Source: Escherichia coli (GTDB lineage Bacteria; Pseudomonadota; Gammaproteobacteria; Enterobacterales; Enterobacteriaceae). Taken from it: 64,000 nucleotides of DNA. The translations under genes were made by a program, and so were the position numbers. Shown one piece after another: positions 62,085 to 62,915 of this stretch. The notes beneath the pieces were generated by a model. That model did no database searches, was not told the origin of the DNA, and saw only the letters and a list, made by a program, of their open reading frames with translations. Positions within the stretch are counted from its first letter, which is position 1. Each line of letters begins with the position of its first letter. The stretch lies in assembly GCF_003018115.1 (NCBI RefSeq), contig NZ_CP027457.1, one strand, 5' to 3'.

Positions 62085-62915
62085 CTACGCAGAGCGAGAC
62101 GCTGTCGCCCCTGCACGTGGTGGCAGGGCAAATGCCACCAGCGCCGGGATGAGATAAATAAACCAGACGGCGACTTCGCTGACGCTCGGTGCTTCCTGAT
62201 AGCCAAAAATCCCTTCCATCAGCGTGCCAAACAGCGAGTGAGTTGAGAGGACCTCGCTCATATCGAAGGCGATTTCCTGAAAGTGGTTCCACAATCCGGC
62301 TTCATGAAATGCGCGAATGGCACCAGCTGCCAGCCCTGCGGCGACGAAGAGAATAAACAGGCTGGTCCATTTAAAAAATGCACCAAGATTGAGGCGAATA
62401 CCGCCCCAGTAGAGCAGGAAGCCGAGCACCACGGCAGTAGCAAGACCGAGCATTGCACCCAGCGGCGGCCAGATCCCGACATCTTGTTGAAATGCCGCCA
62501 GCAGGAAAAAGACCGACTCCAGGCCTTCCCTTGCAACGGCAAAAAAGACCATCATCACCAGCGCCCAGCCATGATGATTTCCACGCTGCAATGCGCTATC
62601 GACTGCCTGTTCCAGTTGCACTTTGACGTTGCGCGACACTTTGCGCATCCAGAAAACCATCCAGGTAAGGATCACCACGGCGATCACCGCCACGATACCT
62701 TCAAACAGTTCCTGCTCTTTTTGCGGAAATTCGCCGGTGGTTTCGTTAATGAAGATACCCAAGCCCAGGCACAACGCAGCGGCAAGCAACACGCCAATCC
62801 ACATCACACCAATCCATCGGCCTCGCTGGGTACGCTTAAGATAGCTGGCAATCAAACTGACAATCAGCGCGGCTTCAAGCCCTTCGCGCAACATAATGAG
62901 AAACGGAACAAACAT
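62085..62915 (-). CDS. efeU: EfeU ferrous-iron permease (FTR1 family), intact
   Basis: Two REGLE motifs (MLREGLEAAL, AVAREGLESVF); start ATG at 62915 preceded by GGGTGG. Confidence 0.85.
   Translation of the reverse strand: MFVPFLIMLREGLEAALIVSLIASYLKRTQRGRWIGVMWIGVLLAAALCLGLGIFINETTGEFPQKEQELFEGIVAVIAVVILTWMVFWMRKVSRNVKVQLEQAVDSALQRGNHHGWALVMMVFFAVAREGLESVFFLLAAFQQDVGIWPPLGAMLGLATAVVLGFLLYWGGIRLNLGAFFKWTSLFILFVAAGLAAGAIRAFHEAGLWNHFQEIAFDMSEVLSTHSLFGTLMEGIFGYQEAPSVSEVAVWFIYLIPALVAFALPPRAGATASRSA

Follow-up and report, generated by a model that had tools for sequence, protein, structure and literature searches.

In E. coli, the closest described relatives of the locus analysed here are the efeUOB operons of natural isolates and their defective counterpart in K-12. 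The EfeUOB system of O157:H7 (YcdNOB) has been demonstrated to be functional (Cao et al. 2007, Mol Microbiol 65:857, as reported by citing papers), and PMC3577903 describes the efeU gene of that serotype as complete and working. EfeU of strain Nissle 1917 was characterized as a ferrous iron permease and a homologue of yeast Ftr1p (Grosse et al. 2006, Mol Microbiol 62:120, again through citing papers). According to PMC3577903, uptake of Fe2+ in acidic medium requires the entire EfeU and the operon is repressed by Fur; PMC4746246 reports induction of Efe by low iron together with low pH. For K-12, a deletion in codon 36 of efeU is given in PMC3577903, and the defect is likewise mentioned in PMC2808357 and PMC7549933.

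The founding member of the OFeT family is yeast Ftr1p, which acts with the oxidase Fet3p. EfeU shares with it the Pfam FTR1 domain, two REXXE motifs and seven transmembrane regions, and in both cases uptake needs a partner that handles the redox state of iron outside the membrane. The similarity amounts to only about 25%, however, and the bacterial partners are EfeO and EfeB, with no multicopper oxidase. The role of the REXXE glutamates in the passage of iron is known from work on yeast Ftr1p and from mutagenesis of EfeU. Among Gram-positive bacteria, B. subtilis YwbLMN (EfeUOB) and S. aureus FepABC consist of an orthologous permease, an EfeO-like protein and a Tat-exported DyP peroxidase, and are Fur-regulated (PMC3577903). 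We liken these two systems to the E. coli operon by description; they differ from it in their Gram-positive context, with tat genes adjacent.

We analysed the efeU locus in a 64,000-nucleotide stretch of E. coli DNA (contig NZ_CP027457.1, assembly GCF_003018115.1), which we refer to as the window.

An uninterrupted efeU gene

The efeU gene lies near one end of the window, with the following features:

62085..62915, minus strand: efeU coding sequence, 831 nt, 276 amino acids plus TAG stop; inner-membrane iron permease of the Ftr1/OFeT family, from the ORF and family models
62874..62888, minus strand: first REGLE motif (REXXE), residues 10-14, codons CGC GAA GGG CTT GAA, in the first hydrophobic segment (1-23)
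62517..62531, minus strand: second REGLE motif (REXXE), residues 129-133, codons AGG GAA GGC CTG GAG, in the fourth hydrophobic segment
62809..62810, minus strand: the two Gs that open codon 36 (GGT, Gly36), efeU nt 106-107, where the alignment has a single G in K-12

A first-pass annotation, made from the sequence without database searches, had described this efeU as uninterrupted and as encoding a full-length permease with both REGLE motifs. Both descriptions are correct. The minus-strand ORF occupies exactly the interval 62085-62915, running from the ATG at 62915-62913 to the TAG at 62087-62085 without an internal stop; the two motifs are in place at residues 10-14 and 129-133. The mechanical ORF list starts the gene at a GTG at 62924, which would yield 279 amino acids. 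We dropped this start in favour of the ATG at 62915, since the latter is the RefSeq start in the 100%-identical strain F9792 and is better spaced to the purine-rich stretch AAGGGTGGG that precedes it within 62916-63049.

Family models cover the protein almost from end to end. The NCBIfam EfeU equivalog NF041756 scores 331.8 bits against a cut-off of 255 (E-value 2.9e-99, profile positions 1-256 of 257), TIGR00145 scores 351.8 bits (cut-off 303.8), and Pfam FTR1 scores 300.2 bits (cut-off 25.3, profile positions 1-283 of 284). The efeU ORF is thus a genuine gene and not a chance frame. Over its whole length it is 100% identical to the annotated efeU of F9792 (WP_000497953.1).

The topology of EfeU was estimated from Kyte-Doolittle hydropathy in 19-residue windows with a threshold of 1.6, a rough method that gives clear segments at about 1-23, 38-56, 70-88, 146-170, 179-203 and 248-266. 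A seventh segment, at about 119-140, carries the second REGLE motif and scores 1.59, just under the threshold, because R129, E130 and E133 sit inside it. The six segments plus the REGLE-bearing seventh, of which the first and the fourth along the chain hold the motifs, agree with the seven transmembrane regions reported for EfeU in PMC9174327. No solved structure turned up when relatives of EfeU were sought by sequence.

Comparison with the cryptic efeU of K-12

The first-pass annotation had also stated that efeU is frameshifted and cryptic in K-12, and had proposed to align the two copies. The statement agrees with the annotation of MG1655, where efeU is 830 nt long and flagged as a 'frameshifted' pseudogene, with our alignment and with the literature cited above; the alignment shows no internal frameshift in the copy of the window. 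It locates the K-12 lesion to one missing G at efeU nt 106, in codon 36. The K-12 frameshift results from this single G where the window has GG at 62809-62810, and frame 0 of K-12 efeU stops after 36 codons, with the remainder, including the second REGLE motif, in another frame. The codon 36 deletion that defines the K-12-type pseudogene is absent from the window, where both Gs are present and the ORF is continuous.

K-12 has the same neighbours, efeO, efeB and phoH, with 98.8% nucleotide identity over 4.55 kb, and its EfeU, once the G is restored, differs from that of the window at residue 221 only. Unlike the window, it lacks an AT-rich segment of about 2.5 kb between putP and efeU (see below).

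Frequency of intact and broken alleles

Among 5426 complete E. coli genomes, the efeU locus was found in 5417, and most records are 95-99% identical to this region. We counted alleles around codon 36 with exact probes of 80 bp for the K-12 deletion and 81 bp for the window, so that the counts refer only to lesions near this codon. The K-12 allele occurs in 368 of the 5417 records; the 60 carriers that were listed, for which alone K-12 ancestry was checked, are laboratory strains of K-12 type by name or source (MG1655, DH5alpha, DH1, C600, J53, NCM3722 and similar). The 81-bp allele of the window is found exactly in 3587 records, and most records without an exact match differ from it by a substitution that leaves the length unchanged. 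The K-12 allele is missing from about 93% of the complete E. coli genomes, and among 40 records sampled at even intervals, a net length difference of 1 bp appeared only in the three K-12 derivatives. Judged by these allele counts, an intact efeU is wild type and that of K-12 exceptional. Of 5419 efeU matches, seven fell on plasmid records, and two copies occur in at least one genome.

One further single-base deletion was seen in efeU. The non-K-12 bovine isolate OkiPb01717 (NZ_AP042706.1, L004 1436-2265), whose efeU is annotated as 'frameshifted', lacks one G at nt 121, equivalent to position 62795 of the window. The gene contains two copies of TGGATTGG 15 bp apart; K-12 lost its G in the first and OkiPb01717 in the second. 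We considered whether the site might be a recurrent hot spot or subject to phase variation and rejected the idea for want of evidence, since the OkiPb01717 allele occurs just once among 5417 records. To judge from its distribution, this deletion is either a private mutation or an assembly error.

The efeUOB operon and its rare alleles

Downstream of efeU, on the same strand, are the two partner genes:

60900..62027, minus strand: efeO, 375 amino acids; periplasmic protein with cupredoxin and imelysin (M75) domains and a Sec-type signal peptide ending in ANA
59623..60894, minus strand: efeB, 423 amino acids; DyP-type haem peroxidase/deferrochelatase, Tat-exported, with SRRRLLK at residues 13-19

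The gene order is efeU, efeO, efeB, with efeO starting 57 nt past the stop of efeU and efeB 5 nt past the stop of efeO, which is the tripartite layout of efeUOB. EfeO is recognized by NCBIfam EfeO models (773 and 481 bits) and by Pfam Cupredoxin_1 and Peptidase_M75, and EfeB by TIGR01412 (613.7 bits, cut-off 428) as well as Dyp_perox_N and Dyp_perox_C. All three genes are full length and score far above the curated cut-offs. Positions 58500-64000 of the window are 100% identical to F9792 (NZ_CP024273.1).

O157:H7 offers the closest comparison with a system of demonstrated function. The order and spacing of efeUOB are the same, and so is the wider arrangement, in which putP, a gene for a 447-residue hypothetical protein and the AT-rich spacer precede efeUOB, and phoH follows (putP, island, efeU, efeO, efeB, phoH). 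The proteins are identical at 275 of 276 residues in EfeU, 374 of 375 in EfeO and 417 of 423 in EfeB; the substitutions are A221E in EfeU, Q234K in EfeO and six in EfeB, P261L among them. Nissle 1917 is likewise a natural isolate with intact EfeU, although it belongs to another lineage; it is likened to the window by description.

The difference at EfeU residue 221 goes back to three nucleotide differences within 7 nt, at 62250-62256 (codons 220-222), where the window has AGCGAGGTC and both K-12 and O157:H7 have AGTGCGGTG. From these three substitutions, A221E arises as the only amino-acid change in EfeU relative to O157:H7 and to K-12 with the G restored. Its exact 81-bp allele is found in 6 of 5412 genomes (F9792, F8111-1SC3, two O169:H41 strains, one bovine O18ac:H14 isolate and LR882990), and sharing it suggests that the window comes from a lineage of A221E carriers. 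Two residues of EfeB also set the window apart: L261 and G11 (60112-60114 and 60862-60864), which are P261 and E11 in both K-12 and O157:H7. Of these, G11 belongs to the n-region of the Tat signal peptide, ahead of the intact SRRRLLK.

The upstream region

Three features precede the start codon of efeU:

62916..63049, minus strand: stretch before the efeU ATG that can be aligned to K-12, 134 bp (about 135 bp in K-12, with one extra G near 63044)
62975..62993, minus strand: CGTAATGATAATCGCTATC, a site resembling a Fur box, 60-78 nt upstream of the start codon, identified by its match to the consensus
62953..62967, plus strand: direct repeat GCAAA-N5-GTAAA resembling a CpxR box, lying after the Fur-like site and ahead of the start codon of efeU

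The Fur-box-like site CGTAATGATAATCGCTATC agrees with GATAATGATAATCATTATC at 15 of 19 positions and is the single best match on both strands of the 64-kb window. The consensus for CpxR is GTAAA-N5-GTAAA, and the CpxR-like pattern occurs three times in the whole window, counting both strands. Control of efeUOB by CpxAR is reported in the title of Cao et al. (2007); from this and the consensus, we infer that 62953-62967 is a candidate CpxR site. In a three-way comparison of the upstream 145 nt, the Fur-like and the CpxR-like sites are identical in K-12 and O157:H7, and the window, O157:H7 and K-12 show conservation over the roughly 135 bp that precede the ATG, the region of O157:H7 being nearly identical to that of the window. 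A simple scan for a canonical sigma-70 promoter on the efeU strand found none.

The homology to K-12 found by BLAST ends at position 63049, 134 nt before the efeU ATG. From 63050 to beyond the end of the window (L002 914-3451), an AT-rich segment of about 2.5 kb takes the place of the 406-bp spacer between putP and efeU in K-12. The part inside the window (63050-64000) has 31-37% GC and no annotated feature; beyond the window, in F9792 and O157:H7, the segment contains the gene for the 447-residue hypothetical protein, which has no convincing Pfam match. At 80-100% identity, the segment occurs in 644 of 5426 E. coli genomes (about 12%), including O157:H7, O55:H7 and 042. An ORF of 88 amino acids with a GTG start (62927-63193, minus strand) extends over the efeU control region and the beginning of the AT-rich segment. 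Neither Pfam nor NCBIfam yields a match for it, the annotation of F9792 does not include it, and we regard it as probably spurious.

Discussion

The efeU gene of the window is free of the K-12 lesion and intact. It belongs to a complete operon that is near-identical to the one of O157:H7 and retains a conserved proximal regulatory region. We are confident that efeUOB is here the ordinary wild-type operon of an E. coli other than K-12, with an intact EfeU that, by homology, would serve iron uptake. Its sequence makes it very probable that EfeUOB works here as an iron-uptake system for conditions of low pH and low iron. For transport activity, an oxidase-dependent mechanism and regulation, we infer the same by analogy with the described systems.

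On this analogy, Fe-Fur, and CpxAR at higher pH, would be the expected repressors of efeUOB, and the operon would be expressed when low iron relieves repression by Fur and low pH lifts that by CpxAR. In the periplasm, EfeO, with its cupredoxin and M75 domains, and the Tat-exported haem peroxidase EfeB would handle the iron, either by oxidizing Fe2+ or by releasing iron from haem. EfeU, like Ftr1p, would then carry it across the inner membrane, and the glutamates of the two REXXE motifs may form its path.

Four other readings have to be weighed against an ordinary, working operon. The least credible, to which we attach practically no weight, is that the intact efeU is a sequencing or assembly artefact in which, for example, a spurious extra G masks a frameshift. 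Single-base indels in short runs of G are a common assembly error, and the private deletion of one G nearby in OkiPb01717 may be an error of this kind. The allele of the window, however, recurs exactly in 3587 independent records, a finished RefSeq chromosome (F9792) agrees with the window over the entire 5.5 kb without a difference, and the match of the full-length EfeU to the family profile runs from one end to the other. We consider it very unlikely that the gene is open while the system is impaired in this lineage through A221E in EfeU or P261L in EfeB. The origin of A221E by three nucleotide changes within 7 nt that only 6 of 5412 genomes have in common, and the departure of EfeB P261L from both K-12 and O157:H7, would fit such an impairment, but residue 221 falls outside both REGLE motifs, in the stretch that separates the sixth hydrophobic segment from the seventh, and A221E persists in several isolates that are independent of one another and differ in serotype (O169:H41, O18ac:H14). 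The full length of efeU, efeO and efeB and their scores far over the family cut-offs also speak against a loss of function.

It is somewhat easier to imagine, but still improbable, that lineage-specific properties are superimposed on the operon: either the AT-rich segment might confer lineage-specific regulation on efeUOB, by H-NS-type silencing or an extra upstream promoter, or the rare A221E might alter transport. If the former were true, it would apply to the carriers of the segment, including O157:H7 and the O169:H41-like lineage. Lastly, the operon could be functional with the extraction of iron from periplasmic haem as its main job, EfeB acting as a deferrochelatase and EfeU importing the product, in place of free Fe2+. 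The NCBIfam name of EfeB, 'deferrochelatase/peroxidase subunit', points in this direction. Against it stand the dependence of Fe2+ uptake in acidic medium on the entire EfeU, as described in PMC3577903, and the induction of Efe by low pH reported in PMC4746246. The two roles are not mutually exclusive and sequence does not separate them, but as an account of the main function we judge the haem-based one to be unlikely.

The existence of an intact efeU outside K-12 is already known: both the defect of K-12 and the functional state elsewhere were published in 2006-2007, and the present case adds nothing new to them. Beyond correct annotation, it has little consequence. The strain of the window should nevertheless be credited with low-pH iron uptake by EfeUOB, which is predicted to work here and is absent from K-12-based models. 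This would be relevant wherever K-12-derived models of metabolism or iron homeostasis are applied to natural isolates or pathogens.
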